Part shown: piece after piece, positions 27,502 through 61,714 of the stretch
Position numbering within the stretch: the first letter of the stretch is position 1
How the letters are laid out: each line of letters begins with the position of its first letter
Source: Marsupella aquatica
Taxonomy: Eukaryota > Plantae > Marchantiophyta
Length of the DNA: 64,000 nucleotides
Reading direction: 5' to 3'
NCBI GenBank assembly: GCA_973895155.1
Contig: OZ316892.1
Coordinates: 22,235,168 to 22,299,167, forward strand
The notes under the pieces: model-generated
Told to the model about the DNA's origin: nothing
What the model saw: only the letters and a program-made list of their open reading frames with translations
Databases searched by the model: none
Made by a program: the position numbers and the translations under genes

Positions 27502-28207
27502 CTTTGAGGGCTTGTCGATCCCCGACGTCTCCTCGACGCCCATAGGTTGAACCGCTCACGCTTGTGGTGTACCGGCCACTCCGCCGGTCTGAGTCAGCGT
27601 GCGTCAGTGGCCGCTTCCTTAAGTTCGTTATACGGACCCGAGGGAGGGGCCCCTCCACGCTCGTAACCCGGGTGTGCGAATAGCGACCCGCCGCCAGCCC
27701 GAACCTGAAGTCGCCCTTATTGCCTAATGATGTCCTACCCCTAATGATTACCTAAATACTGTCGTTATGCTAATAATAGCGGCCTAAGACCCACCTAACG
27801 CGCGTGCCAAGCGCAGTTTAGACTGAATCACTCATTAACCGCCGTACCGGCGGCGTCACATTTAGTATCGGACGGCTGAGCTCTTGCAATATCGGAGCAT
27901 CGGAAAAATGCTAAAAATGTACTAGTGTAAGTAGATCCTATCCAACAAATGGAGCATGATGAATTCTTTAGATTTGGTCTCTCAGTTGCTCTATTAGTGA
28001 TGCATGTAGTTATTCCCTCAAGCGTTATCTCATCCATATGTAGTTTTTGTAACTGTCCTTTCCGAACTTGCTCGGTTTGACTGTGATCCTAGTATGGAAT
28101 AATCACGGTCAAACCAAGCTAGTATTTCTAGAAGTTAGAAGCACTAGTGACAATTGAACTCTGATATTCCCACTGCTGATTGAAGTGCATTGTTTGCGGG
28201 ATTTCAG

Positions 28208-34131: not shown

Positions 34132-37100
34132 TGTGATGCCTAGCCAGGAATCACTGGGCTAGTTTAAGTGGAAAATGGAAGTGTACCCTAGAAACACCTT
34201 AGTATAGTTACAAAAATAAGGAAAATATAAACAATTAAGGGTGACTATGGAACCCGAGCCGAGGCCGGAAGTAAGGACGCCAGGGGAGAGAACACGATTA
34301 GGGTTAGGGCACGCTAAGTGCCGGCGGCTAGGGGTAACCAACGGGAGGGAGAACCAGAGGAGGAGAGGGGTAAGGACCGCTTGCGAGGAATAGTGGCTCA
34401 TTTGCAAGTACAAACTAGGCAGGCGACTACGGGCGGCCAACTACTGTCAACTGCTTAGGCAAGCGCTCAGGGTGGGAACAGATACCGATTATCAACTCGA
34501 GAAGGGTATGAGCAACGCCAATCAAGCGGCACATTTTTGGGGATGCCTGTTCGAATGGGCAACTGAGTACATTGGGACTTACGAGGATGAAGAATCAGAG
34601 AGAGCAACTCGAGAACGGCAGGAGCTCGCCCAATTGTGGGAGCTGCAGAAAGCTGCCTTCTTAGGAGGAGAACTCATCAAGGCTAAATTCTTGTGGACAC
34701 CTACTGGCAACGAGCTAGACGACCTGCTGTTTTGCGAAGACAGAGTCATCGGCATCCGCGAAGCCATCAAACGCTGCAACGACATACACTAGGAGTTGAA
34801 GGGTAGCATGGAGGGGTGGACAAAGGCAACCGTGCTAGGAGAGACATCCACGACAGCCGAGATGAAGAGGAAGGGAAACAACAACGAAGAGGCCACCCCG
34901 GCAAAAAGAATGAGGTCGGCGGCACCAAAGAAGCCAGCAGAACAGCAGAGCAGGAGGCAGAGAGAAGCCGAGGAGGAGGAGGTCGATCCCATCAACGCCA
35001 TTCCAACAAGAGATGACACCTGGAAAGGCTGGGCGGCGATTCTCCCCGAGGAAGTGCAATTATACTTTGCACGGGAGGATGCATGCTTTACGGCTATGTA
35101 GACTCGGAAATACCAGGGCTTCATAGCCGGATCCGGCTTGGAAGCCTTCGTAAAGTTACCGTGGTTAAAGCCGGAGGTGCCGGATTCAGACTTACTAGAA
35201 TTCGTGGGATCATGGGAGTCCGAGACCAATTCCACAAGGGTGTATGGGAAGGATTTCTATCTCACTCCCCAGGTGATTGCCGAAGTGTTTGGCTTGCCGA
35301 TGGGCAATAAGACCAAGGTAGATACCAGGAAGACTTTGCCAGACAAGGAGTTCCGGTCATTTCCAGGGCCTTCAACAAAGAATGGCTTCTTCTGAAACAC
35401 CTGCACCAACCCGCATATAGGAGAGATGATCGGTTTCTTGTAGGTGACCATGCATTGCAACTGGCCGAGACCAGAGATTGGCAAGGCACAGGTCTATCTG
35501 GCAGAGAGGCCAGACCCAAGCCGGGACTACAATGGTTACCTCCTCACTCAACTAAAGAAGATCTTGAAGGAGGAACAGCTGGTGATCGGCAAGGGAAGCG
35601 TGTCCCGGCTTGGCTATCACGTACCGCTATTATGCCGGTATGCCCGAAGTAAGACCTTTGCCCCGGTACTTCCCCTACAGGCAAGGGCACCAGAGGAGGT
35701 TCCGGAATAGAGGCCAGCAACGGAGAAACCCAACCCGCCCGACAGTCCTACAATCGAGCAGGTGTTTAGGCCAAGGATGGAGGACTTGCCAATGCAGCAA
35801 CCAGGCATGCAGAATCTGCTGAAATTGCTGGAGAAGGAAAAGAGAACGGCAACGGCAACGGCACCAATATAGGACACTGCTCTAGAGGTAGGCCTAAGCC
35901 GGCTTACAAGGGAAAACCCCTTTACTGGAGTCAAGGAGAGAAGGAGGCCGGAACACGAGCCGGGAGTCCGGATGTATGTAGGAGCCTCTAGTCCCGAAGC
36001 CGAGGAGAAGCAGGCCGTAGCTCCCGGCCACGACAAGGACAACAAGAGATCAACACGGAAGCCGGAGGAGGAACCAAGACCGGTGAGAGGTGAAGCCGTG
36101 TTCACGACAAAACCAGGAGAACAGCGGGAGAAGCCGGTAGTCCAAGCCGAGGAGGAGGCGGTGGAGGACTACAGCAATGATAACTCCGGCTACGGAACGG
36201 ATCATCATGTTCCAGGAGTAAGGACCTGTGGCCGATTCATCCCCACGCTCCCAAAAGTAGTTCGAGGAGACCCGACCCAGCAGAGCAGCCCCGAGTCTCC
36301 CCCACCAGATGTCGCTCCCCCGAGCTTTGACGGCATAAAACAGACGGCGCAGGAATTTCAGGAGCAAATCAGGGAGGAAGAGGAGGCAGCCCTGGCTAGG
36401 GAGAAGGATTTACCAGGAGGAGAATGGCCAGAGGACATCAGGCGGCTTGCAGAAAAACGAAGCAGCCCTCCAGCCACAATAGAAGAGATCCGCAAGGCGG
36501 CTTGGGAACAAAGGCCGCGGTGGATGATGCCGATGACTTCTACTTCCTCCACCTATGCTAAAAATAGAGCCATGGAGTACGGGGAGATGTGTGGAGAGCT
36601 GGCGCTCAGCATCTTTGGGGAGGAGTTGGAGCAAGGACCCTTTTTTCAGAGGGAGATGTTGGAGAAGCGCCAATTAGAAGAAGCGGTGGCTTTGGAAAGA
36701 AGCAAGAAGGACGAGGTCATCCATCGGCTTAGGGCAAGGGAAGCCTAAATCAAAGACCTGAGGGCGGCCAAGAAAGCCCAAGATGAGCTGCGGATTAAGC
36801 GGCATGAGCTAAATATCATGCAAGGCCAATTGGATACCGCACAATCTGATAATCGGATTATCGAGAATAAACTGACTCGAACCCAAGGAGAGTTGGCCGA
36901 TGCGATCAAGGAGTGGGAGAAGTGGAAGCGAGAGCTAAGGGATGCAGAGGAGGCCCACATAACAGCCAACAACCGGGCCATGGCGGAGACCCAGAGAAGG
37001 GAAAGGGCGTTGAAGGGGGAGCTCGAGGATATCCGCGGAGCCCTTGAGCAGAAGGAGGCTGAGTTAGGGAAATCCTATCAAGGGATTATTGCACTGCAGC

Positions 37101-37913
37101 AGGAGCTTGCGTCCCTGACGGCCAGCTTCAAGGCCGACCTACGAGAGAAGGACAACCAGCTCGACCAGACTTATGCCAAGATGAATAAAATGGAGTTTGA
37201 GGTCTAATGGAGCTCAACAAAGAGCTAAGAGCAACCTAGGAGGAGAGGGCTACCTTCAAGAAGGAATTGGAGGAAGCCCATAAGGAGCTGGAGGAGGCGT
37301 GCAAGGACCTGGACGAAGTGCAGGAAGAGTTGGAGGAAAGCACGCGGAAGCTGGAAAACTTACAACGGCAAGCCGACAACCAAACGGAGCGGCTGAAGAA
37401 ACAAGCCGCAGTATTTAAGTGCTTGGCTTCTTCCAGACCAACTCCAACTGGGGCAACCAAGTTACCAGGAGTGGTACTGGCCTAAGGACAAGCCGCGCCA
37501 CTTGCACCAGTGCCGGAGGTAAGTGGGAAGGGGCCAGCTGCCGAACCAGAAAAGAAGAAGAAGCGGAAACCTTCTGGGTCAAGGAGTAATACGGCTCCAC
37601 AGGCCATGGTGACTAAGGAGGTAAACCCAGCACCGACCTCAGGCAGGGTCACGACAGAGGATCCAACTACCCTAGAAGGAGGGGAGGGCAAACCCAAGGC
37701 CGGGATACTCGGTAATGAAGCCGAGGTACCGAAACTGCCACTTGAGTGTGCAGGGGAGGCCGTAGCCAAGGCTGATGCCGAAGCTGATGCCGATGCCAAA
37801 GCCGAGGGTGGACCCAGTCAGGCCGATGGAGAGTTGACTCAGTCCAGGGCAGGTAATCTGTCAGAGAACAAACCTACGGCAGTGGCTGAGGAGGAAGTGT
37901 TGGGGGCGTCCAC
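34132..37913 (+). mobile_element. Decayed LTR of family B (copy C2), 5' part, interrupted by the full-length element
   Basis: Second TGTGATGCCTAG start at 34132. Fragments 34472-37913 are colinear with the 1228-aa ORF and contain many stops. Confidence 0.9.
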
Positions 37914-38834
37914 TGTGGTGCGTCCCATGGCTCCCTAAACCCAAGAAACCCCCCAGCTCAAGCCGATTCCCGCAGGTTTCGTGCTTGGCGAGGCCGTTTC
38001 CGCGGCTTAGCGGCATGGGACGCTGCTAACCTTCTACTACTACTATTAACATTTTACACACATATACTGGACAGATCCTTCATCGGGTCATGAGATACGT
38101 AGCCGGCCTAATATAGGCCTTCCCCTGTCTTCCCCTGTCTTCCCCTCCGTCTTGTTAGGTATGTTTGGATTCCGCCGCCGGAATGATCCCCAATAGGCTT
38201 GGTTAAGCCGCTAAGACCTCTCTCAGCTCGACACATCCAACTCTCACTCCCCTGCTTACTTTCCTTCCTTCTGTTGATGTGGGCACTCTTCACACAAGTT
38301 AATGCGACACACAAATAGCAAAATGACTCATTCTGACTGAGTCATACCATGCACTTGCCATACAAACAGTACATCTCATACACAAGTTCTGCGAACTAAG
38401 CCGTGAGGCCAACTCTATTCAGCTCTTAGGCATGAGGAAACATGAATATACACAAGGGTCACTGTATGACTAACCGAGAGCTTCTCGTACTACTTGATCC
38501 CAGCCCGGCTGGTGCAAACTAAAAACTTGCTAAAGAAGAGGCCCTGAGCTCCCCGCTGCCCAGGTACTTATCCTGGTAGTGGATCCGCCATTCTTTGCAT
38601 CGTAAGCCTAATCTACTTAACAGTAATCTACTTGCCCGAATCTACCTATGTACAGCAAGGCAGGAGCACAAGTGTTGCTCCTACCAGTGGGACCGCAATC
38701 CCACTAAGCTAAGTGTCAGGGCCGCTCCTGGTTCTGATCCTAATCCTAAACGTGGAGATCCGCGCCCGCCCTGCCCACTCACGCCTCCTCCCTCCACGTC
38801 CGCCTTCCCTAAAAGGAACGGCGCCCTTGCACCG

Positions 38835-41800
38835 TCACGACACCGGTGGTGGATCCTCAATGGACGCCCCCAACACTTCCTCCTCAGCCACTGCCGTTGG
38901 CCCGCCTACTGACAGATTACCTGCCCTTGACCGAGTCAACTCTCCATCGGCCTGACTGGGTCCACCTTCGGCTTCAGCCTCGACACCGGCCTCGGCAATA
39001 CCCACGGCTTCGGCCTCAGCCACTCCCACGGCTTCGGCTTCAGCCACTCCCTCGGCTTCGGCCTCAGCCACCCCCACGGCTTCGGCCTCCCCTTCCCCTA
39101 GGGTAGTTGGATCCTTAGCCGTGACCCTGTCTGGGGTCGGTGCTGGGTCTACCTCCTTGATCACCACGGCCTGTGAAGTCGTATTACTCCTTGACCCTGG
39201 AGGTTTCCGCTTCTTCTTCGTTGGTGGCTCGGCAGCTGGTCCCTTCCCCTTCCCACTTACTTCCGGCACTGGTGCAGTTGACGCGGCTTGTCCTTCGGCA
39301 ATTACCACCCCTGGTAACTGGTTTGTCCCAACGGGAGATGGACCTGCTACAGCTAAGCATTTAAATACTGCGGCTTGTTTCTTCAGCCGCTCTGTTTGGT
39401 TGTCGGCCCGCCGCTGTAGGTTCTCCATCTTCCTCGTGATTTCCTCCAACTCCTCTTGGGTTTCATCCAGGTCCTTACGTGCCCCCTCCAGCTCGTTTTT
39501 GGCCTCCTCCTGCTCCCTGTGGGCTTCCTCCAATTCCTTCTTCAAGGTAGCCCTCTCCTCCTGGGTTGCTCTTAGCTCCTTGTCGAGCTCTGCAATGATG
39601 ACAGACTCCATCTGGTTCATCTTGGCGTAAGTCTGTTCGAGCATCTCGTCCTTCTCCCTTAGGTCGGCCTTGAAGCTGGCCGTCAGGGACGCAAGCTCCT
39701 GCTGCAGCGCCATAATCCCTTGATAGGATTTCCCTAACTCGACCTCCTTCTGCTCAAGGGCTCCGCGGATTTTCTCGAGCTCCCCTTTCAACGCCCATTC
39801 CTTTCTTTGGGTCTCCGCCATGGCCCGGCTGTTGGCTGTTATGTGGGCCTCCTCTGTATTCTTCAGCTCTTGCTTCCACTTTTCCCTCTCTTTGATCGTG
39901 TCGGCCAACTCTTCCTGCGTCTGAGTCAGTTTATCCTTGATATTCTGATTATCAGCCTGCGCGGCGTCCAACTGCCCCTGCATGATGTTCAGCTCATGTT
40001 GTTTAATCCGCAGTTCATCTTGGGCTTTCTTGGCCGCCCTTAGATCTTCAATCTCGGCTCCCATCCTCCTAAGCCGCCGAATGACCTCGTCCTTCTTGCT
40101 TCTCTCTAAAGCCACCGCTTCTTCTAATTGGTGCTTCTCCAACTGCTCCCTATGGAAAAAGGGTCCTATCTCCAACTCCTCTCCAAAGATGCCGAGCGCA
40201 AGTTCCCCACACATCTCACCATACTCCATGGCTCTATTCTTAGCGTAGGTGGAGTAAGTAGAAGTGATCGGCATCGCCCATCGTGGCCTCTGCTCCCAAG
40301 CCGTCCTGCGGATCTCTTCAATCGTGGCTAGAGGTTTGCTTCCTTTTTCGGCTAGCCGCCTGATGTCCTCCGGCCAATCTCCTCCTGGTAAATCCTTTTC
40401 CTTAGCCAGGGCGGCCTCTTCCTCCTGCTTGATTCGCTCCTGAAATTCCTGCACCGTCTGTTTTATGCCGTCGAAGCTCGGGGGAGCAACATCTGGTGGG
40501 GGAGACTCAGGGCTACTCTGCTGGTTGGGGTCCCCTCGCACTACCCTTGGAAGTGTGGGGACAAACCGGCCACAGGTCCTTACTCCTGGAACGTGATGGT
40601 CCGACCCATAGCCGGAATTATCATGGCTGCAGTCCTCCACTGCCTCCTCTACCTCTTGGACGTCCGGCTTCTCCCTCTCCTCTTCGTCGGTAGGAGCTTC
40701 AGGCAATTCTGCCTCAGATTCGGAGCTTGAGGTTCCCACGTACATTCGAACACCTGGCTTGGATTCCGGCCTGATTCTCTCCTTGTCTCCAGCAAAGGGG
40801 TTTTCTCTTGTGAGCCGGTGTAGGCCTACCTCTGTAGTAGTGTCCTGCATTGTTGCCGTTGCCGTTGTTGTTGCCGATGTCGATTTCTTTTCTTTCTCCA
40901 GTAGTTTCAGCAGACTCTGCATGCCTGGTTGCTGCATCGGCAAGTCTTCCTTCCTGGGCCTAAACACCTGCTCGATCGTAGGACTAACAGGTGGTTGAGG
41001 CTTCTCAGCCAACGGCCTCGGCGTTGGAGCTTCCTCGGGTGCCCTTACCTGCAGGGGAAGTACCGGGGCAAAAGTCTGACCTCTGGCATACCGGCACAAC
41101 AGCGGCATGTGATAGCCAAGCCGCGACACGCTCCCCATGCCGATTACCTGCTGCTCCTCCTTTAAGATCTTCTTCAATTGGTTGAGGAGGTACCCGTTGT
41201 AGTCCCGGCTTGGGTCTGGCCTTTCTGCCAGATAGACCTGTGCCTTGCCGATCTCTGCCCTCGGCAAGTTACAATGCATGGTCACCCGCAAGAAGTCGAT
41301 CATCTCTCCTATGTGCGGGTTGGTGCAGGTGTTCCGGAAGAAGCCATTCTTCGTTGATGGCCCGGGGAACGACCGGAACTCCTTGTCAGGCAAGGTCTTC
41401 CTGGTATCAACTTTGGTCTTATTGCCTATCGGCAGGCCAAACACTTCGGCAATTACCTTGGGAGTAAGATAGAAATCCCTCCCATATATCCTCGTGCAAT
41501 TGGTCTCGGGTTCCCATGACCCCACGAATTCTAATAGGTCTGACTCCGGTACCTCCGGCTTCAGCCATGGTAATCTTACAAAGGCCTCCAAGCCGGATCC
41601 GGCCATGAAGCCTTGGTACTTCTTGGTCTGCATGGCCGTAAAGCATGCATCCTCCTCCCGTGCAAAATGTAGTTGCACCTCCACCGGTAGGGTTGCCGCC
41701 CAGCCCTTCCAGGTGTCATCCCTGGTTGGAATGGCCTTGATGGGATCGACCTCCTCCTCTTCGGCTTCTCCCTGCCTCCTGCTCTGCTGCTCGGCTGGCT

Positions 41801-42521
41801 TCTTTGGTGCCGCCGACCTCATTCTTTTTGCCGGGGTGGCTTCATCGTTGATGGCTCCCTTCCTCTTCATCTCTGCTGCCGTGGAGGTTTCTCCTAGCAA
41901 CGTTGCCTGGGTCCACCTTTCCGTGCTACCCTTTAATTCCCAGTGTATGTCGTTGCAGTTCTTGATGGCCTCTCGGATGCCGACGACGCTGTCTTTGCAA
42001 AACAGAAGATTGTCGAGTTGATTGGAAGTAGGCGTCCACAGGAACTCGTCGTTGATGAGTTCGCCTCCTAAGAAAGCCGTCTTCTGCAGCTCCCACAATC
42101 GAGCGAGCTCCTGCCGTTCTCGAGCTGCCCTTTCTGACTCCTCGTCCTCGTAAGTCTTGATGTACTCAGTTGCCCGTTCGAACAGGCATCCCCAGAAATG
42201 TGCCGCTTGATTGACGTTGCTCATACCCTCCTTAGGTTGATCGTCGGTATCAATTCTCTCCCCGAGTGCTTGCCTAAGCAGCTGACAGTAGTTGGCCTCC
42301 CGTAGTTGTCTGCCTAGTTCGTGCTCGCAAATGAGCCACCATCTCCTGCAAGCGCTCCTTACCCCTCTCCTCTGCCGGTCCTTCTTCCCGTTGATCCTTC
42401 CTAGCCGCCGACGCTTAACGCGCCCTAACCCTAATCGGGTTTTCACCCTCAGCCTTACCTCCGGCCTCTGCCCGGGTTCCATGGTTGCCCCTAATTGTTT
42501 ATATTTTCCTTGTTTTGTCAC
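38835..42521 (-). CDS. LTR-internal ORF of 1228 codons (likely start ATG 42224 or 42482); homologous to the family A LTR protein, with a long coiled coil
   Basis: Intact ORF wholly inside the LTR; motif LPW..EFVGSW...RIYGRDFYLTPKVIAEVFGLP.G; EAEAVGVA repeats at the C-terminus. Confidence 0.9.
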   Translation of the reverse strand: MTKQGKYKQLGATMEPGQRPEVRLRVKTRLGLGRVKRRRLGRINGKKDRQRRGVRSACRRWWLICEHELGRQLREANYCQLLRQALGERIDTDDQPKEGMSNVNQAAHFWGCLFERATEYIKTYEDEESERAARERQELARLWELQKTAFLGGELINDEFLWTPTSNQLDNLLFCKDSVVGIREAIKNCNDIHWELKGSTERWTQATLLGETSTAAEMKRKGAINDEATPAKRMRSAAPKKPAEQQSRRQGEAEEEEVDPIKAIPTRDDTWKGWAATLPVEVQLHFAREEDACFTAMQTKKYQGFMAGSGLEAFVRLPWLKPEVPESDLLEFVGSWEPETNCTRIYGRDFYLTPKVIAEVFGLPIGNKTKVDTRKTLPDKEFRSFPGPSTKNGFFRNTCTNPHIGEMIDFLRVTMHCNLPRAEIGKAQVYLAERPDPSRDYNGYLLNQLKKILKEEQQVIGMGSVSRLGYHMPLLCRYARGQTFAPVLPLQVRAPEEAPTPRPLAEKPQPPVSPTIEQVFRPRKEDLPMQQPGMQSLLKLLEKEKKSTSATTTATATMQDTTTEVGLHRLTRENPFAGDKERIRPESKPGVRMYVGTSSSESEAELPEAPTDEEEREKPDVQEVEEAVEDCSHDNSGYGSDHHVPGVRTCGRFVPTLPRVVRGDPNQQSSPESPPPDVAPPSFDGIKQTVQEFQERIKQEEEAALAKEKDLPGGDWPEDIRRLAEKGSKPLATIEEIRRTAWEQRPRWAMPITSTYSTYAKNRAMEYGEMCGELALGIFGEELEIGPFFHREQLEKHQLEEAVALERSKKDEVIRRLRRMGAEIEDLRAAKKAQDELRIKQHELNIMQGQLDAAQADNQNIKDKLTQTQEELADTIKEREKWKQELKNTEEAHITANSRAMAETQRKEWALKGELEKIRGALEQKEVELGKSYQGIMALQQELASLTASFKADLREKDEMLEQTYAKMNQMESVIIAELDKELRATQEERATLKKELEEAHREQEEAKNELEGARKDLDETQEELEEITRKMENLQRRADNQTERLKKQAAVFKCLAVAGPSPVGTNQLPGVVIAEGQAASTAPVPEVSGKGKGPAAEPPTKKKRKPPGSRSNTTSQAVVIKEVDPAPTPDRVTAKDPTTLGEGEAEAVGVAEAEAEGVAEAEAVGVAEAEAVGIAEAGVEAEAEGGPSQADGELTRSRAGNLSVGGPTAVAEEEVLGASIEDPPPVS
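42498..42503 (-). promoter_or_regulatory. Candidate TATA box for the LTR-internal gene
   Basis: TATAAA ~95 nt inside the LTR, conserved in both B LTRs, C1 (32754) and C2 (34226). Confidence 0.45.
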
Positions 42522-42585
42522 TATACTAAGGTGTTCCTAGGGTGCCTTCCTGCTTTACCCACTTAACCGGCCGAGTGATTCCTAT

Positions 42586-45500
42586 CTAGGCATCACATAG
42601 CTCCCCACTTAATTGTGAAGCGTCCTCGCGAACAACTTCATCTTCGTCCATATAGTATTTCTTGAGGCGGTCATAATGGATGTGAACTGGATATACCTCT
42701 CCCGTAATGTTGGCCAATTGTACGGAGCCATTGGGGAACATCATGGTTACTCTAAAGGGTCCTAACCAGCGAGTGTAAAGCTTTCCTGGAAACCTACTAT
42801 ACCTACTGTCATAAAGTAGCACAAGATCACCGGTATGAATACTAACTACTTTTAACCTTTTATCATACTGCTGCTTCATGATATTCTGTCTATATTCTAC
42901 TCTCTCGGCTGAAATCATTCTCGCTTCCTCTAAAGCTTCTAACCTATATTCTCGCTCCTTTAGGCTCTCCTCCGCTGAGGCTCTTTCCTCAATTGTAACT
43001 TGAAATGTCGGTATCTCAAGTTGCATGGGTACCAGGGCTTCTTGTCCAAAGGTTAAGAAGAAGGGTGTATGACCGGTAGTGGATTTATAGGCCAGATTGT
43101 AAGCAAAAACAGCAGCAAACAATTTATCATCCCAATCGAGTTTGTTTTGAGCTACTGTCTTGTTCAATATCTTTCCTATGATTCCGTTTGCTCGTTCTGT
43201 CAACCCGTTTGCCTTTGGATGGTAGGGAGTAGTAGGCCTATGTTTAACTAAATACTGCTCAATTAAACGACTAATTATATCATTCAAAAAATGGGTTCCT
43301 CTATCACTAACTAATTCTAGGGATGCTCCATACCTGGTGAAGATCTGCTCATACATGAATCTAGCCGTAGTAATTGCATCATCCTTCGTTGTTGGTCTGG
43401 CCTCTACCCATTTAGTTGCATAATCCGTAGCCAGGATTATGTACTTGTTCCGTCGAGGGTGGGTCAGTGGTTTCAGAGGTCCAATGTAATCAATACCCCA
43501 CTTCTCGAATGGTGCCAGAGGTAGAATAGGGTGCAGTGGATGCCTGGTGGACGCCCTTGGTCCTCCCGCTCGTTGACAAGGATCGCATTGTTTGATAAAC
43601 TGATAGACATCTTTGTGCAAGGTGGGCCACCAGTAACCGGCATTTAATATCTTCTTAGACGTGGTTACTGGGGCAAAATGTCCTCCGGCCTCCTCTCCAT
43701 GCATGGCCCGTAGGACTCGTTTTACCTCTCTCTTTTCCAAACACCTTTGAATCGTGCCGTTGATTCCATGCTTGTGCAGTATGCCTTTAATGCACTGATA
43801 CTGTCTGACCTTCCGCACAAAGACTGCGGCTTGCTCTCGGCTTAATCCTGGCTGTAATCTGGAAGTGCTGAGAAATTGTAAAATCTCAGGGTACCATGTA
43901 CTAGCTATTTCCACAACGAATAGCTCCTCGTCGGGGAATCGATCATCGATGCAATCCGTGGCAGGTTTACCTGTGATCCTTGAAAAGAAGTCGGCATTGG
44001 CATGTAACTTTCCCGGCTTGATCCTCAGCTCATAGTCAAACTCCTGTAATAGCAAAATCCATCTTGCTACTCTGCCTGTAAGGTCCGGCTTATTGACTAG
44101 GTACTTCAAACTTTCATGATCAGTATGAAAGATTACCTTGTACCCTAGTAAATAATGCCTAAACTTTTTACAAGAATAAATGACTCCTAATGCTTCTCTT
44201 TCCGTGGTAGAGTAGTTCCGTTCGGCATCGGCAAGCTGACGGCTTGCGAAGTATATGGGATGGTCCCTTCCTTTCTCATCCAACTGACTTAGTACTGAGC
44301 CAATACAGAAGCCCGAGACATCTACAAAAACATGAAAATCTTTGTTCCAGTCCGGTGCTATCATGACTGGGGCCTCTACTAACATCTGCTTCAATTCTAC
44401 CACCGCTGTGACTCGTTCGGGTGTGGGTTCGAAGTCTGCTCCTGCCTTGAGCATATTGGTTAATGGTAAAGCCAGCTTGGCAAAATCCTTGATGAACCGG
44501 CGATAGTAACCAATGCATCCCAAGAAGGATCTTACATCCTTTATGTTCTTAGGTTGCATGATATCTAGCCATACTGCTAGCTTACCTTTGTCAATCTCAA
44601 TGCCCTTCCTTGATACCTTGTGACCTAGTAGCACCCCCTCGGTTACTGCAAAAAAACATTTATCTGGGTGTAACTTGAGACCCACCTCTCTACATCTCAT
44701 GAAGGTTTTCCTGAGGTATTTAGCATGTTTCGATGCCTTCCCGAATACTGCAAAGTCATCAATGAAGATTTCCATGAACTTTCTCAAGTAATCATGAAAA
44801 ATGTTCACCATTAATCGTTGGAACATAGCTGGTGCGTTGCAGAGTCCAAACGGCATACGATTGAAGACATAGATCCCCCATTCCGTGATGAAGGCCGTCT
44901 TGATTTGGTCTTCCTGCCGAATCCTGATTTGGTTATAACCAGAGTATCCATCCATGAATGAATATAGTTCATGACTGGCTACCATGTCTAGTACCATATC
45001 AGTAAACGGTAAAGGAAAATGGTCTTTTAATGTTGCTTCATTCAGCTTCCTGTAATCCTGACAAACCCGGATCTTGGGTTTACCATCGGGTCCAGCTTTC
45101 TTGGGAACTATCACAATTGGAGACACCCAGTCTGAATGCAGGACTGGAGTGATGAATCCAGCTTCCACTAGTTTGTCGATTTCTGTTTTGACCAGCAGGG
45201 AATACTTCGGGTTCATCCTTCGAATTGGTTGTCGAAATGATTTGGCTCCTAACATGAGATCAATTCGATGTTCCCCTAGTGTTGGATCTACTCCCTTTAG
45301 ATCTTGGTGACTCCATGCAAACACATCCTGAAATTCAATCAATAAGTCACTGATCTCTTTCTCGAGCTCAGGTGCTAGGTTTCTCCCTAAGTTCAGTTCT
45401 CTTCCCTCTCCTAAGTCGAGCTTCCGATATTGCCGTGCTTGGATCATATTAATCTGCTTCTTCAAATTCGGGTCCAGTTCGGCTTCCAGTCTCTCTAATC

Positions 45501-45852
45501 TCATACCTCCATAAACTGGGATCTCGGCTGGACTAGCCGAGTCGGTCCCTTCCTTGGTGTCCATAGATTGTCCCCTTACCGGTCTATTCGGTTTTGAATT
45601 AGTGGTCGGCTCCCCTTCCTGCCTTGGCTCTAGATCGTGTCTGTCCATCTCATCCACCTCTTGCTCCTGAGAGTTAGGCCGCTGTGCTCTCTCGGCTTCT
45701 AATAGGGCCTCAATTTGTTCTGCCCTCGTAATCGGCTTGTATGCCGATCCCTTGGTATTTAATTCCTTGCCGATGATCGATGGCGTTGTGGACCCCGTCG
45801 GCTCTGCCACAACGCCTGCAGAAAATCCACTGTCCCTGCTACTGCTCCCCAC
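42586..45852 (-). CDS. pol: Pol: reverse transcriptase, RNase H, integrase
   Basis: RT motifs DYRKLN, MPFGLCNAP and FIDDF; RNase H VDVS..YSTTEREAL; integrase HHCC zinc finger, WGIDYIGP, SDRGTHF and YHPKANGLTER. The stop codon lies inside the 3' LTR. Confidence 0.97.
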   Translation of the reverse strand: MGSSSRDSGFSAGVVAEPTGSTTPSIIGKELNTKGSAYKPITRAEQIEALLEAERAQRPNSQEQEVDEMDRHDLEPRQEGEPTTNSKPNRPVRGQSMDTKEGTDSASPAEIPVYGGMRLERLEAELDPNLKKQINMIQARQYRKLDLGEGRELNLGRNLAPELEKEISDLLIEFQDVFAWSHQDLKGVDPTLGEHRIDLMLGAKSFRQPIRRMNPKYSLLVKTEIDKLVEAGFITPVLHSDWVSPIVIVPKKAGPDGKPKIRVCQDYRKLNEATLKDHFPLPFTDMVLDMVASHELYSFMDGYSGYNQIRIRQEDQIKTAFITEWGIYVFNRMPFGLCNAPAMFQRLMVNIFHDYLRKFMEIFIDDFAVFGKASKHAKYLRKTFMRCREVGLKLHPDKCFFAVTEGVLLGHKVSRKGIEIDKGKLAVWLDIMQPKNIKDVRSFLGCIGYYRRFIKDFAKLALPLTNMLKAGADFEPTPERVTAVVELKQMLVEAPVMIAPDWNKDFHVFVDVSGFCIGSVLSQLDEKGRDHPIYFASRQLADAERNYSTTEREALGVIYSCKKFRHYLLGYKVIFHTDHESLKYLVNKPDLTGRVARWILLLQEFDYELRIKPGKLHANADFFSRITGKPATDCIDDRFPDEELFVVEIASTWYPEILQFLSTSRLQPGLSREQAAVFVRKVRQYQCIKGILHKHGINGTIQRCLEKREVKRVLRAMHGEEAGGHFAPVTTSKKILNAGYWWPTLHKDVYQFIKQCDPCQRAGGPRASTRHPLHPILPLAPFEKWGIDYIGPLKPLTHPRRNKYIILATDYATKWVEARPTTKDDAITTARFMYEQIFTRYGASLELVSDRGTHFLNDIISRLIEQYLVKHRPTTPYHPKANGLTERANGIIGKILNKTVAQNKLDWDDKLFAAVFAYNLAYKSTTGHTPFFLTFGQEALVPMQLEIPTFQVTIEERASAEESLKEREYRLEALEEARMISAERVEYRQNIMKQQYDKRLKVVSIHTGDLVLLYDSRYSRFPGKLYTRWLGPFRVTMMFPNGSVQLANITGEVYPVHIHYDRLKKYYMDEDEVVREDASQLSGELCDA
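42600..42611 (-). other. Polypurine tract (TAAGTGGGGAGC)
   Basis: Purine-rich tract 2 nt before the 3' LTR in element orientation. Confidence 0.75.
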
Positions 45853-48560
45853 TTAGCCGTTTCATCCAATTGGTCTACATCCTTTACTTCCTCCGGAATT
45901 TCAGCTAAAAAGGTGGATTCTATTGTAAAGCAGTCCTCGACCTCTTCGTCTTCTTCTTCCAAGTCACCTTCCATTGGTTCTTGCCATAATCCGCTGGGGG
46001 GTACCTCTGGTCCAAAGACACCTTCTTCGGTTAGGTTAGTGAGGCATTCTAACCAACGTACTTCATCGGCTGACTCCAGTCCACTATCGTACCCATCTAC
46101 TTCCCTTATGCTTTTCCTACGGTCATCCTTAGTGTCCCAGGATACCGTGATAGAGGGGGTCCCGAAAGTGAACTGCTTTTTACCCCAATCTTCTATTACC
46201 TCGGCTAGGTACAGCCATGGCCTACCAATCAATAGCCGGAATGATGTAGGATTTACCGGCTTCATTACTACATAGTTAATGCTAAAGAAGATACCTCCTA
46301 TCTCTGTCTTGATGCCGGTTAACACTCCCGTCGGAATGACCTGATATCCATTGGCCATGTTCAACACTCTTCCAGTCATCTCCGGTGTTAGACCCCACCC
46401 TTTTGCTGTTGAATCAATCATAATACATACCCCTGATCCTCCATCGATGGGTACCCGTAGTAATAATTCTCCTTGAATCATTAATGGTAATGCTGGGGCT
46501 CCTTGATCTTCTTCTATCATTAGTACGTCGGATCTGGTTGCTACCTTGGGTAATCTCGGCTTGCCGAGAATAGCCTTCCTTAATTGCTTCCGGAAGTACG
46601 GGCTATTTTTCAATAGTTGACCTACTGTTGCCGAGACTCTAGATTCTAGTACATCTTTAGCCAGGTCATAGGGAACAATCGGCTTCTCTTCTGGTGGTGT
46701 TTCCGTCTTGGATTCGGCCAGTTTTGCCACGCTAGTCTCCACAGCTGTTGGGTCTTCCGAAGCAAACAATGCTTTTGCTCGTTTTACATCCTTGGCAATG
46801 GCTTCGGTATTCTCCAGGGTTTCTAATTCTCTTAGTTGTTCCTTAACACTAGCCGTAACAGAGGGGTAGAACAACTTAGGATGATCTCGATTGAAGTCGC
46901 TATCTTGTGAAGGATTGGTTTCACTGGTGGGCTCATGGCTTACCTGTATTGCCGGAGCCCTCCTTTCTCCTTCTGTTGATGTTGACGAAGAGTCGATCCT
47001 TTCCTCCGTAACCTTCCCTTTATTTTTGGCCAGCCCATCCCACCTTTCCTTCCTTCTGGTAGATCGAGTAGAGACCCGGTAGCAATCATGATCTAAATCC
47101 TCCTCTGAGAAGGTTGATAGGGCTTCGGCCTCATCATCAGATGGTACGAACTCTGCCTCGGCATCCTCTTGCCATCCTAGTTCGATGTGGTTGATTTGAA
47201 CTCCTCCGGGGGTAGTACCTGGCGGTAAGATCTTGATCGGCAAAAGCTTATGATTTGCGGCCAGGCCTGCCAACCAAGTAGGACATTGCCCTAGCATATG
47301 ACCTTCCTGTCGGCATCCCATACATAGCTGAGCTGGTTGTCCATCACCCTGTTTGCGTGCATTCGGGCATTCTCTAGCAAAATGGCCAGGTTGACCACGA
47401 TTATAGCACGCCGCAAATCTTTGCACATTCGGCCTAGGAGGTACTGACGGGTTCTGAATAATCCGAGGATACATCTCTCCTGGATTGTTCCTTAACCCTG
47501 ACCACAGAGATGCAGGTCTGTTGGATAGGTCTCGTGCTCCAGTCTCACTGATGCCGAAAACACTATCAGCGGCATCTCCCAAAAAGTACTCTACTTCTCC
47601 CTGACATGGTCTGATCTCGGCCACATGCCGAACATGATTAGTATTAAGCTTAGGACACGCATCTTTATGGTGTCCGGTTTTATAACATAAGGCACACCAT
47701 ACAGAGCTATCCTCCTGTACTACCTTCTTCTTTGGTTTTACCTCTGCAATGATAGCCTTAAGTTGCTCGGTAAGGGCTACGATGTTATCTGGTGGCTTAG
47801 CCTCCATCTTGACTTTCGTCTTCCCTCTCCTTCTGCCCTTCCTTTTCCTAGTTTTTTCTTCTTCAGAACTAGAAGATGACTCACTCTTGCTACTCCCACT
47901 ATCCGAGCTTGACTTATCACTTCTAGACTTCTTGGAATGTTTCTTCTTCTTATCTTTTTTCTTATGGGGTGATCCCTCCTCTGATGAGGAACTCTCAGAC
48001 TTAAGCTGTTTCTTCCGGCTTGTGATATCTGCATTAATGTATAATTGAATATCCTTAATTGCTTCGGCTAAAGTCTCCGGGTTCTCCTTCCTAATTGCAA
48101 AACTCATCTTCTGTGGCAAAGCATTCACTAACCATTGAAGTTGCATACCTTCAGATGCATTGGTCTTTGTACGTCTTACCAGTTTCTAAAAGCGTTGCAA
48201 GAACTTCCTGAAGGATTTGTTCTCCTTGAACCGAAGTTGTCCCAACTTCAGCACTGCTAGTTCTGAAGTTCCAATGGGTCGAAACTCCTTAACAAAGAGT
48301 GTTTTGAAGATATCCCAGATGGCTTGATCTTCCACATCTAATGCTCTGTACCAAGGCCTAGCCTCACCCTTGAACAGGCCGGGAAGAATCTGCATCTTGA
48401 TGGCCGATTCTCCATTTGCTGCAGCGGTTCCCTCGAAATCATCCAACCATTCGTCCGGATCCTCATCTCCTCTCCCATGAAATGCCTTGTAATGTATGCG
48501 TGACCGCTGGCTCAATCTGGTCCCTGGCCTCTCGTCTGGCCGTGCCTCTGGTTCCCCCAT
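45759..48560 (-). pseudogene. gag: Gag-protease ORF with one in-frame stop (48186-48188)
   Basis: Capsid-like segment (FHGRGDEDPDEWL..EARPWY); three CCHC knuckles (one with C>R); protease IDGGSG. ORFs 48186-48560 and 45759-48146 share one frame. A possible upstream ATG at 48743 is followed by two stops. Confidence 0.9.
45769..45828 (-). promoter_or_regulatory. Putative programmed -1 ribosomal frameshift signal
   Basis: G GAT TTT heptamer in the gag-PR frame (45828-45822), 5-nt spacer, perfect 10-bp stem GGCGTTGTGG/CCACAACGCC. The loop GCCGA can pair with downstream TCGGC. Pol is in the -1 frame. Confidence 0.75.
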
Positions 48561-48765
48561 GTCGGTTGGAGACTCACTTCTCCTTACCGACTCTTCTTCT
48601 GGTATGTCTTCTTCGACGCCACTTCCAGTTTCGGAGCTACCAGCTCTTTCTGCCCCTCTCAGTCGCTGTGTATCATGCCACCCGGCGAGCTGCTTCCCTC
48701 GGCGTAAGGTCAGTCATTACCTACGCTTCCGTTCTAACTTCATATCTCACGGCTTAAGAAATGCC

Positions 48766-48782
48766 CCCTCCATCTAGCGCCA
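48766..48782 (-). other. Primer-binding site, tRNA-Asn type
   Basis: TGGCGCTAGATGGAGGG 4 nt after the 5' LTR; complementary, with one mismatch, to the plant tRNA-Asn(GTT) 3' end CCCTCCTTCTAGCGCCA (tRNA sequence recalled, not searched). Confidence 0.8.
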
Positions 48783-48786
48783 AAAA

Positions 48787-51700
48787 TGTGGTGCGTCCCA
48801 TGGCTCCCTAAACCCAAGAAACCCCCCAGCTCAAGCCGATTCCCGCAGGTTTCGTGCTTGGCGAGGCCGTTTCCGCGGCTTAGCGGCATGGGACGCTGCT
48901 AACCTTCTACTACTACTATTAACATTTTATACACATATACTGGACAGATCCTTCATCGGGTCATGAGATACGTAGCCGGCCTAATATAGGCCTTCCCCTG
49001 TCTTCCCCTGTCTTCCCCTCCGTCTTGTTAGGTATGTTTGGATTCCGCCGCCGGAATGATCCCCAATAGGCTTGGTTAAGCCGCTAAGACCTCTCTCAGC
49101 TCGACACATCCAACTCTCACTCCCCTGCTTACTTTCCTTCCTTCTGTTGATGTGGGCACTCTTCACACAAGTTAATGCGACACACAAATAGCAAAATGAC
49201 TCATTCTGACTGAGTCATACCATGCACTTGCCATACAAACAGTACATCTCATACACAAGTTCTGCGAACTAAGCCGTGAGGCCAACTCTATTCAGCTCTT
49301 AGGCATGAGGAAACATGAATATACACAAGGGTCACTGTATGACTAACCGAGAGCTTCTCGTACTACTTGATCCCAGCCCGGCTGGTGCAAACTAAAAACT
49401 TGCTAAAGAAGAGGCCCTGAGCTCCCCGCTGCCCAGGTACTTATCCTGGTAGTGGATCCGCCATTCTTTGCATCGTAAGCCTAATCTACTTAACAGTAAT
49501 CTACTTGCCCGAATCTACCTATGTACAGCAAGGCAGGAGCACAAGTGTTGCTCCTACCAGTGGGACCGCAATCCCACTAAGCTAAGTGTCAGGGCCGCTC
49601 CTGGTTCTGATCCTAATCCTAAACGTGGAGATCCGCGCCCGCCCTGCCCACTCACGCCTCCTCCCTCCACGTCCGCCCTCCCTAAAAGGAACGGTGCCCT
49701 TGCACCGTCACGACACCGGTGGTGGATCCTCAATGGACGCCCCCAACACTTCCTCCTCAGCCACTGCCGTTGGCCCGCCTATTGACAGATTACCTGCCCT
49801 TGACCGAGTCAACTCTCCATCGGCCTGATTGGGTCCACCTTCGGCTTCAGCCTCGACACCGGCCTCGGCAATACCCACGGCTTCGGCCTCAGCCACTCCC
49901 ACGGCTTCGGCTTCAGCCACTCCCTCGGCTTCGGCCTCAGCCACCCCCACGGCTTCGGCCTCCCCTTCCCCTAGGGTAGTTGGATCCTTAGCCGTGACCC
50001 TGTCTGGGGTCGGTGCTGGGTCTACCTCCTTGATCACCACGGCCTGTGAAGTCGTATTACTCCTTGACCCTGGAGGTTTCCGCTTCTTCTTCGTTGGTGG
50101 CTCGGCAGCTCGTCCCTTCCCCTTCCCACTTACTTCCGGCACTGGTGCAGTTGACGCGGCTTGTCCTTCGGCAATTACCACCCCTGGTAACTGGTTTGTC
50201 CCAACGGGAGATGGACCTGCTGCAGCTAAGCATTTAAATACTGCGGCTTGTTTCTTCAGCCGCTCTGTTTGGTTGTCGGCCCGCCGCTGTAGGTTCTCCA
50301 TCTTCCTCGTGATTTCCTCCAACTCCTCTTGGGTTTCATCCAGGTCCTTACGTGCCCCCTCCAGCTCGTTTTTGGCCTCCTCCTGCTCCCTGTGGGCTTC
50401 CTCCAATTCCTTCTTCAAGGTAGCCCTCTCCTCCTGGGTTGCTCTTAGCTCCTTGTCGAGCTCTGCAATGATGACAGACTCCATCTGGTTCATCTTGGCG
50501 TAAGTCTGTTCGAGCATCTCATCCTTCTCCCTTAGGTCGGCCTTGAAGCTGGCCGTCAGGGACGCAAGCTCCTGCTGCAGCGCCATAATCCCTTGATAGG
50601 ATTTCCCTAACTCGACCTCCTTCTGCTCAAGGGCTCCGCGGATTTTCTCGAGCTCCCCTTTCAACGCCCATTCCTTTCTTTGGGTCTCCGCCATGGCCCG
50701 GCTGTTGGCTGTTATGTGGGCCTCCTCTGTATTCTTCAGCTCTTGCTTCCACTTTTCCCTCTCTTTGATCGTGTCGGCCAACTCTTCCTGCGTCTGAGTC
50801 AGTTTATCCTTGATATTCTGATTATCAGCCTGCGCGGCGTCCAACTGCCCCTGCATGATGTTCAGCTCATGTTGTTTAATCCGCAGTTCATCTTGGGCTT
50901 TCTTGGCCGCCCTTAGATCTTCAATCTCGGCTCCCATCCTCCTAAGCCGCCGAATGACCTCGTCCTTCTTGCTTCTCTCTAAAGCCACCGCTTCTTCTAA
51001 TTGGTGCTTCTCCAACTGCTCCCTATGGAAAAAGGGTCCTATCTCCAACTCCTCTCCAAAGATGCCGAGCGCAAGTTCCCCACACATCTCACCATACTCC
51101 ATGGCTCTATTCTTAGCGTAGGTGGAGTAAGTAGAAGTGATCGGCATCGCCCATCGTGGCCTCTGCTCCCAAGCCGTCCTGCGGATCTCTTCAATCGTGG
51201 CTAGAGGTTTGCTTCCTTTTTCGGCTAGCCGCCTGATGTCCTCCGGCCAATCTCCTCCTGGTAAATCCTTTTCCTTAGCCAGGGCGGCCTCTTCCTCCTG
51301 CTTGATTCGCTCCTGAAATTCCTGCACCGTCTGTTTTATGCCGTCGAAGCTCGGGGGAGCAACATCTGGTGGGGGAGACTCAGGGCTACTCTGCTGGTTG
51401 GGGTCCCCTCGCACTACCCTTGGAAGTGTGGGGACAAACCGGCCACAGGTCCTTACTCCTGGAACGTGATGGTCCGACCCATAGCCGGAATTATCATGGC
51501 TGCAGTCCTCCACTGCCTCCTCTACCTCTTGGACGTCCGGCTTCTCCCTCTCCTCTTCGTCGGTAGGAGCTTCAGGCAATTCTGCCTCAGATTCGGAGCT
51601 TGAGGTTCCCACGTACATTCGAACACCTGGCTTGGATTCCGGCCTGATTCTCTCCTTGTCTCCAGCAAAGGGGTTTTCTCTTGTGAGCCGGTGTAGGCCT

Positions 51701-53470
51701 ACCTCTGTAGTAGTGTCCTGCATTGTTGCCGTTGCCGTTGTTGTTGCCGATGCCGATTTCTTTTCTTTCTCCAGTAGTTTCAGCAGACTCTGCATGCCTG
51801 GTTGCTGCATCGGCAAGTCTTCCTTCCTGGGCCTAAACACCTGCTCGATCGTAGGACTAACAGGTGGTTGAGGCTTCTCAGCCAACGGCCTCGGCGTTGG
51901 AGCTTCCTCGGGTGCCCTTACCTGCAGGGGAAGTACCGGGGCAAAAGTCTGACCTCTGGCATACCGGCACAACAGCGGCATGTGATAGCCAAGCCGCGAC
52001 ACGCTCCCCATGCCGATTACCTGCTGCTCCTCCTTTAAGATCTTCTTCAATTGGTTGAGGAGGTACCCGTTGTAGTCCCGGCTTGGGTCTGGCCTTTCTG
52101 CCAGATAGACCTGTGCCTTGCCGATCTCTGCCCTCGGCAAGTTACAATGCATGGTCACCCGCAAGAAGTCGATCATCTCTCCTATGTGCGGGTTGGTGCA
52201 GGTGTTCCGGAAGAAGCCATTCTTCGTTGATGGCCCGGGGAACGACCGGAACTCCTTGTCAGGCAAGGTCTTCCTGGTATCAACTTTGGTCTTATTGCCT
52301 ATCGGCAGGCCAAACACTTCGGCAATTACCTTGGGAGTAAGATAGAAATCCCTCCCATATATCCTCGTGCAATTGGTCTCGGGTTCCCATGACCCCACGA
52401 ATTCTAATAGGTCTGACTCCGGTACCTCCGGCTTCAGCCATGGTAATCTTACAAAGGCCTCCAAGCCGGATCCGGCCATGAAGCCTTGGTACTTCTTGGT
52501 CTGCATGGCCGTAAAGCATGCATCCTCCTCCCGTGCAAAATGTAGTTGCACCTCCACCGGTAGGGTTGCCGCCCAGCCCTTCCAGGTGTCATCCCTGGTT
52601 GGAATGGCCTTGATGGGATCGACCTCCTCCTCTTCGGCTTCTCCCTGCCTCCTGCTCTGCTGCTCGGCTGGCTTCTTTGGTGCCGCCGACCTCGTTCTTT
52701 TTGCCGGGGTGGCTTCATCGTTGACGGCTCCCTTCCTCTTCATCTCTGCTGCCGTGGAGGTTTCTCCTAGCACCGTTGCCTGGGTCCACCTTTCCGTGCT
52801 ACCCTTTAATTCCCAGTGTATGTCGTTGCAGTTCTTGATGGCCTCTCGGATGCCGACGACGCTGTCTTTGCAAAACAGAAGATCGTCGAGTTGATTGGAA
52901 GTAGGCGTCCACAGGAACTCGTCCTTGATGAGTTCGCCTCCTAAGAAAGCCGTCTTCTGCAGCTCCCACAATCGAGCGAGCTCCTGCCGTTCTCGAGTTG
53001 CCCTTTCTGACTCCTCGTCCTCGTAAGTCTTGATGTACTCAGTTGCCCGTTCGAACAGGCATCCCCAGAAATGTGCCGCTTGATTGACGTTGCTCATACC
53101 CTCCTTAGGTCGATCGTCGGTATCTACTCTCTCCCCGAGTGCTTGCCTAAGCAGCTGACAGTAGTTGGCCTCCCGTAGTCGTCTGCCTAGTTCGTGCTCG
53201 CAAATGAGCCACCATCTCCTGCAAGCGCTCCTTACCCCTCTCCTCTGCCGGTCCTTCTTCCCGTTGATCCTTCCTAGCCGCCGACGCTTAACGCGCCCTA
53301 ACCCTAATCGGGTTTTCACCCTCAGCCTTACCTCCGGCCTCTGCCCGGGTTCCATGGTTGCCCCTAATTGTTTATATTTTCCTTGTTTTGTCACTATACT
53401 AAGGTGTTCCTAGGGTGCCTTCCTGCTTTACCCACTTAACCGGCCGAGTGATTCCTGTCTAGGCATCACA
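48787..53470 (-). repeat. 5' LTR (4,684 bp)
   Basis: Direct repeat of 37914-42597, adjacent to the PBS. Confidence 0.97.
49708..53394 (-). CDS. Second intact copy of the 1228-codon LTR-internal ORF
   Basis: Same length as 38835-42521, with 14 aa differences. Confidence 0.9.
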   Translation of the reverse strand: MTKQGKYKQLGATMEPGQRPEVRLRVKTRLGLGRVKRRRLGRINGKKDRQRRGVRSACRRWWLICEHELGRRLREANYCQLLRQALGERVDTDDRPKEGMSNVNQAAHFWGCLFERATEYIKTYEDEESERATRERQELARLWELQKTAFLGGELIKDEFLWTPTSNQLDDLLFCKDSVVGIREAIKNCNDIHWELKGSTERWTQATVLGETSTAAEMKRKGAVNDEATPAKRTRSAAPKKPAEQQSRRQGEAEEEEVDPIKAIPTRDDTWKGWAATLPVEVQLHFAREEDACFTAMQTKKYQGFMAGSGLEAFVRLPWLKPEVPESDLLEFVGSWEPETNCTRIYGRDFYLTPKVIAEVFGLPIGNKTKVDTRKTLPDKEFRSFPGPSTKNGFFRNTCTNPHIGEMIDFLRVTMHCNLPRAEIGKAQVYLAERPDPSRDYNGYLLNQLKKILKEEQQVIGMGSVSRLGYHMPLLCRYARGQTFAPVLPLQVRAPEEAPTPRPLAEKPQPPVSPTIEQVFRPRKEDLPMQQPGMQSLLKLLEKEKKSASATTTATATMQDTTTEVGLHRLTRENPFAGDKERIRPESKPGVRMYVGTSSSESEAELPEAPTDEEEREKPDVQEVEEAVEDCSHDNSGYGSDHHVPGVRTCGRFVPTLPRVVRGDPNQQSSPESPPPDVAPPSFDGIKQTVQEFQERIKQEEEAALAKEKDLPGGDWPEDIRRLAEKGSKPLATIEEIRRTAWEQRPRWAMPITSTYSTYAKNRAMEYGEMCGELALGIFGEELEIGPFFHREQLEKHQLEEAVALERSKKDEVIRRLRRMGAEIEDLRAAKKAQDELRIKQHELNIMQGQLDAAQADNQNIKDKLTQTQEELADTIKEREKWKQELKNTEEAHITANSRAMAETQRKEWALKGELEKIRGALEQKEVELGKSYQGIMALQQELASLTASFKADLREKDEMLEQTYAKMNQMESVIIAELDKELRATQEERATLKKELEEAHREQEEAKNELEGARKDLDETQEELEEITRKMENLQRRADNQTERLKKQAAVFKCLAAAGPSPVGTNQLPGVVIAEGQAASTAPVPEVSGKGKGRAAEPPTKKKRKPPGSRSNTTSQAVVIKEVDPAPTPDRVTAKDPTTLGEGEAEAVGVAEAEAEGVAEAEAVGVAEAEAVGIAEAGVEAEAEGGPNQADGELTRSRAGNLSIGGPTAVAEEEVLGASIEDPPPVS

Positions 53471-53475
53471 TCCAC

Positions 53476-54015
53476 TGAGGAACAGACACCGTTGCCATGA
53501 CGGTGGTGGAGGGCCGCTCCTTTCAAGGAGGGCGGACGTGGAGGGAGGAGGCGTGAGTGGGCAGGGCAGGCTCAGATCTCTAAGTTTAGGATTAGGATCA
53601 GGACCAGGAGGCGGCCCTGACACTTAGCTTTGTGGGATTGCGATTCCACTGGTAAGAGCAACACTTGTACTTCTGCCTCGCTGTACATAGGTAGATTTAG
53701 TTAGGTAGATTAGGCTTACGCTACAAGGAATTAGGCGGATCCACTACCAGGATAAGTACCTGGGCAGCGGGGAGCTCAGGGCCTCTTCTTTAGCAAGTTT
53801 TTAGTTGCACCAGCCGGGCTGGGATCAAGTAGTAAGAAAAGCTCTCGGTTAGTCATACAGTGACCCTTGTGTATATTCATGTTTCCTCATGCCTAAGAGC
53901 TGAATAGAGTTGGCCTCACAGCTTAGTTTGCAGAGCTTGTGTATGAGATGTACTGTTTGTATGGCAAGTGCATGGTATGACTCAGTCAGAAGGAGTCATT
54001 TTGCTATTTGTGTGT
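53476..54015 (+). mobile_element. 3' remainder of LTR copy C2, truncated ~400 bp before the LTR end
   Basis: Continues C2 after the TSD; matches the reverse complement of ~38310-38860; similarity stops after GCTATTTGTGTGT. Confidence 0.85.
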
Positions 54016-61300: not shown

Positions 61301-61714
61301 GATCCATGTCGACTACCTTCCCCGACAGATGCCTTCTTGTTTACGTCTATTTTGGGCGCAATACATTATTTGATTGGATTTAAGTATAACTTAGTAGCAG
61401 TTCCCGACAGGACTACCGAGTCAGCTACAGCGGAATGGGACAGCCAGGACAGACGGCTTGTCAAGCTCGCGTGGGAGGAAGCTTCGGCATATTTCTCGTC
61501 GGAGAAGTTAACCCTTCCGTGCTACGCTGCTGATACCTATCATGAAGAAATAGTGCCTCGCTGTGTAAAAGAGAGAAAAAGGAAAACTCTCAAATTTGTC
61601 GATGATAGGGCAAAAGAAGCTCAATCGGATGAGAGTAGCTTGGTAGGAAGTGACAGTCTCCAAACTCACCATGTAAGTATAAGATTATCAAGCTCCAGTT
61701 CCAAAGAGTAATGT

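Follow-up and report, generated by a model that had tools for sequence, protein, structure and literature searches.

The window, i.e. the whole stretch of 64,000 nucleotides of Marsupella aquatica DNA that was analysed (contig OZ316892.1, positions 22,235,168 to 22,299,167), contains an entire Ty3/gypsy retrotransposon with long terminal repeats (LTRs), in which gag and protease (PR) are encoded in one reading frame and reverse transcriptase (RT), RNase H (RH) and integrase (IN) in another. In this study, we analysed the junction of the two frames as a candidate site of programmed −1 ribosomal frameshifting. The element occupies window positions 37914..53470 (15,557 bp) on the minus strand, as do all of its parts given below, and belongs to a young family with many copies. 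It shows the structural marks of Ty3/gypsy elements: direct LTRs with TG..CA ends, a 5-bp target site duplication (TSD) flanking both sides, a primer-binding-site-like sequence beginning with TGG 4 nt inward from the 5′ LTR end (48765..48782), and a polypurine-tract-like sequence preceding the 3′ LTR (42601..42610). The 5′ LTR (48787..53470) and the 3′ LTR (37914..42597) are 99.6% identical, with differences at 20 of 4684 places. The gag 5′ part (48186..48713; Retrotrans_gag, E 2.8e-7) closes at an in-frame stop at 48188-48186, which was absent from an earlier note on this DNA. Because of this stop, decay of the element had to be tested; the stop is private to the window copy, all contig depth at 48188 carrying another letter (runs X1, X2, X3 and X6; four studies). 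The same frame continues through the gag 3′ part, a zinc knuckle, the protease and an acidic linker (45759..48185) up to a TAA at 45761-45759. The RT-RH-IN open reading frame (ORF) comprises 1088 codons from stop to stop (42586..45852; first ATG 45648) and ends 12 nt within the 3′ LTR. Pfam searches recovered gag, zinc knuckle, RT, RNase H and integrase in the gypsy order, and with the protease the order is GAG-PR-RT-RH-IN as in Ty3/gypsy elements.

The position of the protease relative to the frame break depended on structure prediction. The domain at 46110..46535, with a D-G-G-S-G motif at 46445, was predicted to adopt a retroviral-type aspartic protease fold (mean pLDDT 85), and a fold search with this model matched the retroviral protease-like domain (RVP) of Ddi1 (best E 2e-7) and HIV-1 PR. 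Pfam by itself was weak for the protease (E 0.03) and a sequence search of the PDB with it gave chance matches only, hence the fold search decided its identity. On this model the protease sits 5′ of the frame break, which confirms the claim of the earlier note that the break lies between protease and RT and not between gag and protease.

The gag-PR frame and the RT-RH-IN frame, which is open from 45852, overlap by 94 nt in the −1 direction. Within the overlap, the heptamer G GAU UUU (45822..45828) lies in the phase of the gag frame (codons V-D-F) and is followed by a 5-nt spacer (45817..45821) and a stem S1 (45782..45816), in which 45816-45807 pairs with 45791-45782 over 10 perfect base pairs around a loop of 15 nt. 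All of these parts were found as the earlier note had described them. An in-phase heptamer of the X XXY YYZ type within the overlap and a predicted 10-bp stem at a distance of 5 nt are the canonical features of a −1 frameshift signal, and the predicted folding of S1 gave z-scores of −3.3 to −3.8. A possible pseudoknot stem S2 (45769..45802) would be formed by the loop sequence GCCGA (45802-45798), which is complementary to 45773-45769. Directly after the gag stop a second hairpin (45730..45751) follows; the words of S2 are repeated there, so that alternative pairings are possible. An inner 3-bp hairpin of the minimum free energy fold was rejected, because 45793 varies in 15-69% of depth, which disrupts the pairing.

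The combination of heptamer and stem is beyond chance. Both strands of the window hold 530 slippery-like heptamers, and G GAU UUU at the junction is the sole one followed by a perfect stem of at least 9 bp. S1 is also the longest perfect stem starting at any of 6109 internal positions. In 3000 dinucleotide shuffles, an in-frame heptamer occurred in 9%, together with a stem of at least 7 bp in 2 of the 3000, and together with a 10-bp stem in none.

Conservation of the signal was analysed in sister copies by means of complete variant tables from runs X1, X2, X4 and X5 (two studies; threshold 1%). The copies were seen as collapsed assembly contigs of related samples, among which the source of the window may itself be present, and depth in them is not copy number. 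The tables hold 27 rows at 25 places. No place of the heptamer varies (0/7), and S1 varies at one of 20 places, S2 at 2 of 10 and the spacer at 3 of 5, the latter with no listed indel. In the rest of the overlap the loops vary at 0/4, 2/6 and 2/8 places, the upstream part at 10/24 and the downstream part at 2/10. Heptamer and S1 together thus have one variable place in 27, compared with 19 in 57 in the remaining overlap without S2 (Fisher p 0.002, a rough value). Four-fold degenerate sites of the translated frame show the same pattern (0/9 variable inside the signal vs 8/13 outside; p 0.006, likewise rough), which argues against protein constraint as the cause. Both listed variants in S2 convert a pair to G-U. 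In loose ends that come from diverged subfamilies, heptamer and stem arm are retained although the 5-nt spacer between them differs, and one loose end keeps the 3′ strand of S2 despite changed flanks.

The frame break itself is common to the copies. Where a continuous ORF in sister copies would have contradicted the earlier note, contigs carry the break and cross the junction without a gap: record 22 of X3 (45442-46206; 9 differences in 765 nt), record 28 of X6 (45745-46010; 2 differences in 266 nt), these two from two further studies, and record 17 of X4, the contig of which may be the window's source. In the variant tables the gag stop does not vary, and the stretch 45720-45861 has no indel. 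Upstream of this region, five indel rows comprise one 3-nt deletion and 1-nt gaps that come in threes at near-equal depth and sum to 3, and one loose end has +3 nt. Since the upstream indels total multiples of 3, the gag frame is retained up to the shift site. Other copies therefore keep the frame break, the heptamer and the stem, as the earlier note had expected. A more distant view is given by P0241 (Logan, 3 contigs, 46% identity), a protein in which the gag-frame peptide is kept up to the shift codon (20/41 identical, E 2e-11) and which terminates six residues past an Asp at the same offset as the shift position.

The arrangement in two frames was observed, as were the position of the protease upstream of the break, the signal and the conservation of this signal among copies. 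On this evidence, programmed −1 ribosomal frameshifting at G GAU UUU probably joins Gag-PR to RT-RH-IN, and from the sequence we put this reading at a probability of roughly 0.8. Most ribosomes would read Gag-PR and terminate at 45759. A minority would pause at the 10-bp stem, perhaps as part of a pseudoknot (at about even odds), and the paused ribosomes would slip one base back on G GAU UUU to yield Gag-PR-RT-RH-IN. Thereby, Gag and protease would be produced in equal amounts, with rationing confined to RT and integrase.

Several observations weigh against this reading. A sliding scan over 409 windows, with 12 shuffles for each, was noisy; S1 was not among its ten lowest z-scores, and the lowest z belonged to the hairpin just 3′ of the gag stop. 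S1 has no firm compensatory pair; a partner change to 45813 occurs in one loose end only, with the linkage unseen. Collapsed contigs lose rare variants, and the p-values are rough because the runs are related and may include the source and the places are non-independent. Lone 1-nt gaps occur upstream at less than 1% of depth. One loose end of X4 (2 contigs) changes the 3′ strand of S2 and looks 1 nt shorter. The C-A-G of a possible splice acceptor is also invariant, and P0241 is known as a protein alone, its heptamer and stop being inferred. The 5-bp loop pairing of S2 turned up in 5% of 5000 shuffles; for this reason the pseudoknot is not beyond chance on the window copy alone. The H-type pseudoknot proposed in the earlier note is only moderately supported, at about even odds.

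The best surviving alternative, which the earlier note overlooked when it opposed recoding to decay, is partial splicing as in Ogre elements. A candidate GT-AG intron of 152 nt (45816..45967; donor at 45967, acceptor AG ending at 45816) would be removed from some transcripts to give an in-frame Gag-PR/RT fusion, the U-run of the heptamer serving as polypyrimidine tract, and it could coexist with frameshifting. The donor fits 8 of 9 consensus places, is one of the two best in 48600-45860 and has the phase for the fusion; the acceptor is made of the heptamer end and the spacer, and two others of its kind occur in the 6.2-kb internal region. Moreover, the acceptor CAG is invariant, all three spacer variants are pyrimidines on the sense strand, and three control linkers lack a comparable donor or acceptor. 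The Ogre intron lies at the same domain boundary according to the accessible part of PMC6317226. Nevertheless, splicing is disfavoured because the candidate intron encodes a gag-frame peptide that is conserved in a 46%-identical relative, namely the 41-residue match in P0241. The candidate intron is open in the gag frame only and its common indels preserve this frame; it is purine-rich (64% A+G, 22% U), with six AG within its last 50 nt. Among 23 listed of 39 loose ends, none lies at 45815, where intron-less copies would break. Splicing would also leave the invariant GGA and the conserved stem unexplained, and we regard it as unlikely.

Separate synthesis of RT-RH-IN from the first AUG at 45648, either by ribosomes that reinitiate past the Gag-PR stop or on a shorter RNA made via the acceptor at 45816, is still less probable. 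AUGs are present at pol codons 69, 97, 117 and 136, upstream of the RT core, and three Calypogeia gene models begin at one Met about 100 residues ahead of the same conserved motif. However, P0239 puts this Calypogeia Met inside a frame that continues from the protease, and the conservation of heptamer and stem would be left unexplained. Third positions of pol-frame codons account for 7 of the 12 variable places upstream of AUG 45648, a weak point against initiation there, and it is unclear how free Pol would be packaged. Decay, in which a one-base indel split a single ORF and the signal is coincidental, is scarcely tenable and largely refuted by the sister copies: the window copy has its private nonsense stop in gag and the closest relatives are single-frame here (P0064; P0239 with P0063/P0122), but the break is common to high-depth contigs and diverged subfamilies from four studies, both frames are otherwise long and open, the LTRs are nearly identical and the signal is conserved. 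The recoding postulated in the earlier note therefore stands against decay.

The nearest named relatives are liverwort proteins, from Calypogeia fissa (63-64% identity over the matched part of pol), Riccia and Marchantia; from these relatives alone, the host would probably be a bryophyte. In a quick RT-RH tree calculated from 94 of 106 eligible rows (12 rows below 46% identity were left out), with no root test and no REXdb references, P0064 and two Calypogeia proteins form a group with the element (SH-aLRT 99). P0064, a single contig, has one ORF from gag through RNase H, and in the Calypogeia gene model P0239 the protease continues in frame into the RT leader of P0063/P0122. These single-frame relatives are gene models or singletons. 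Because the closest members of this bryophyte-associated clade have a single frame across the junction, the break appears to be a derived state within it. The linkers of P0064 and the Calypogeia proteins gave no significant alignment to either junction frame, so the frame change cannot be placed by alignment. An angiosperm single-ORF clade, which we take to be Athila, has 47% identity, and the element groups apart from it in this tree.

Other relatives appear to divide Gag and Pol differently. A sister clade represented by DNA (JGI contigs L002 and L003, 54% pol identity) has gag and a continuous PR-RT-RH-IN in the same frame with one UGA between them (L002 3142-3144; L003 1910-1912); CAA or CGG comes next, along with a stem that is predicted to be long. 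Judged from these sequences, the UGA would be a readthrough-type signal in a plant gypsy clade; thus the same wider lineage also appears to ration Pol by recoding there, with a UGA before the protease instead. Many of the PR-RT-RH-IN proteins among the relatives found and placed in the tree belong to this clade. Five protease-containing proteins (P0128, P0133, P0155, P0274 and P0275) all end in GS[KR]ELK after the protease, 128-165 residues past the GRPW motif in the three proteins measured, and probably represent another family split after the protease. The 150 related proteins listed were mostly short fragments, uninformative on layout. A homolog search with gag-PR residues 440-790 gave 2 matches. 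Scans for related loci in viral contigs and genome contigs found nothing, and a metagenome scan gave 8 loci, 0 of them from this family.

In the alpharetroviral layout, a −1 frameshift separates Gag-PR from RT-IN. The element resembles this layout and the pro-pol junction of delta- and betaretroviruses, as the −1 shift follows the protease and the signal consists of a heptamer plus a stem or pseudoknot. It differs in that it is a Ty3/gypsy element of a plant, has another heptamer and is broken only once. It works similarly without being a member: Pfam searches of its extra ORF gave no match to an env family, and its relatives are plant gypsy elements. For HTLV-1, a −1 frameshift at pro-pol is described in the accessible parts of PMC7075266 and PMC5009743. 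The split into Gag-PR and RT-IN, which the earlier note had called alpharetroviral, is not confined to retroviruses and prevails in plant Ogre and Retand elements (PMC6317226).

In the layout table of this 2019 survey (PMC6317226), GAG-PROT is split from RT in Ogre (by a spacer or stop) and Retand (by a stop), both of the Tat clade. The element studied here shares the split and has a −1 overlap where the Ogre spacer is spliced and Retand has one stop. Overlapping frames occur in this table only ahead of the protease (Tcn1, Selgy and SIRE), and no lineage has GAG-PROT overlapping RT as its prevailing layout (PMC6317226). The element is not Tat, because no second (aRH) RNase H was seen: Pfam gave no match for it, and about 100 aa lie between RNase H and the zinc finger of integrase. 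Instead of the non-overlapping spacer of Ogre (mean 274 bp) its frames overlap by 94 nt, and the candidate intron is open and conserved as protein. With a 5-bp TSD, 15.6 kb and an extra ORF, it does not fit Phygy/Selgy, which have a 4-bp TSD, are short and lack an extra ORF. It is like Athila in having no aRH and a 5-bp TSD.

The heptamer itself has a precedent in plant RNA viruses, as the earlier note had stated. According to the accessible text of PMC4737148, GGAUUUU, identical to the heptamer of the element, was tested as the shift site of RNA2 of pea enation mosaic virus (PEMV; an umbravirus) and shifts in wheat-germ extract. The context differs: in PEMV the stop comes 3 nt downstream (PMC5009743), and the hairpin is large and bulged and accompanied by long-distance pairing, whereas the stop of the element follows 60 nt on and its stem is compact.

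The Gag-PR/RT split is therefore known in plants, while a −1 overlap as the route to it was not found described. In the open literature searched, as far as its text was accessible, no plant retrotransposon was described as shifting by −1 between its protease and RT; this search was without subscription journals and the per-element tables of REXdb, and a 2003 survey may list PR/RT shifts. The plant cases of that survey are +1-frame only according to the accessible part of a 2016 review (PMC5009743), and the accessible parts of PMC5580714, PMC12786077, PMC11963269 and PMC5006619 contain no plant PR/RT frameshift. Skipper of Dictyostelium, considered as a precedent for a pro/pol split, was not supported by the part of PMC5006619 available.

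Gag excess over Pol in plant retrotransposons is mostly attributed to single ORFs and splicing, and a −1 shift after the protease would place protease on the abundant side. The mechanism as such is textbook; the novelty lies in the group of hosts, in the position and in how varied the close relatives are. A young many-copy family with a compact conserved signal allows −1 recoding in a mobile element of plants to be tested directly, and annotators should be cautious not to take such frame breaks for decay. A broader reading, to which we give slightly less than an even chance, is that a land-plant lineage with a 1215-codon gene inside each LTR independently evolved the retroviral pro-pol −1 shift with a pseudoknot, and that up to four modes of rationing Pol exist among its close relatives, namely a single ORF, readthrough of a UGA ahead of the protease, the −1 shift after it, and the further break after the protease in the GS[KR]ELK proteins. 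If true, the lineage would be a natural comparative system for why the Gag:protease ratio can vary.

Further observations concern the LTRs and the rest of the window. Each LTR carries a sense ORF of 1215 codons (ATG 53355, stop 49708 in the 5′ LTR; a second open copy at 42482-38835 in the 3′ LTR) with a coiled-coil C-terminal half and leads to Transposase_32 and ATHILA ORF families (0.87-0.89). A homolog search with this ORF gave 0 matches, and in L006 a 3′ extra ORF that lies in no LTR seen is weakly homologous to it. Nested insertions that end in the LTR terminus (loose ends at 45723) support the LTR start. Summed contig depth was several-fold higher over the last 200 bp of the LTR (48796-49000) than elsewhere in it, which may point to solo LTRs or to other families with the same end. 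The element inserted into a related LTR-like sequence (83-89% identical; 32660-37913 and 53476-54015, plus strand), which holds a decayed copy of the same LTR ORF and a 1.47-kb tandem duplication of its start; a gag-pol belonging to this target was not found within the window. Two 4-kb inverted repeats (5730-9737 and 23823-27860; 97% identical) enclose the remnant of a CACTA-type transposase (Transposase_21 and DUF4218 at 21381-22604); a long ORF carried by these repeats (903 codons, 27393-24685) is 28-29% identical to the domain of the LTR ORF. Ulp1-type peptidases are often carried by DNA transposons, and an ORF for such a peptidase (C48, E 3e-12) is present on the plus strand at 61712-62515.

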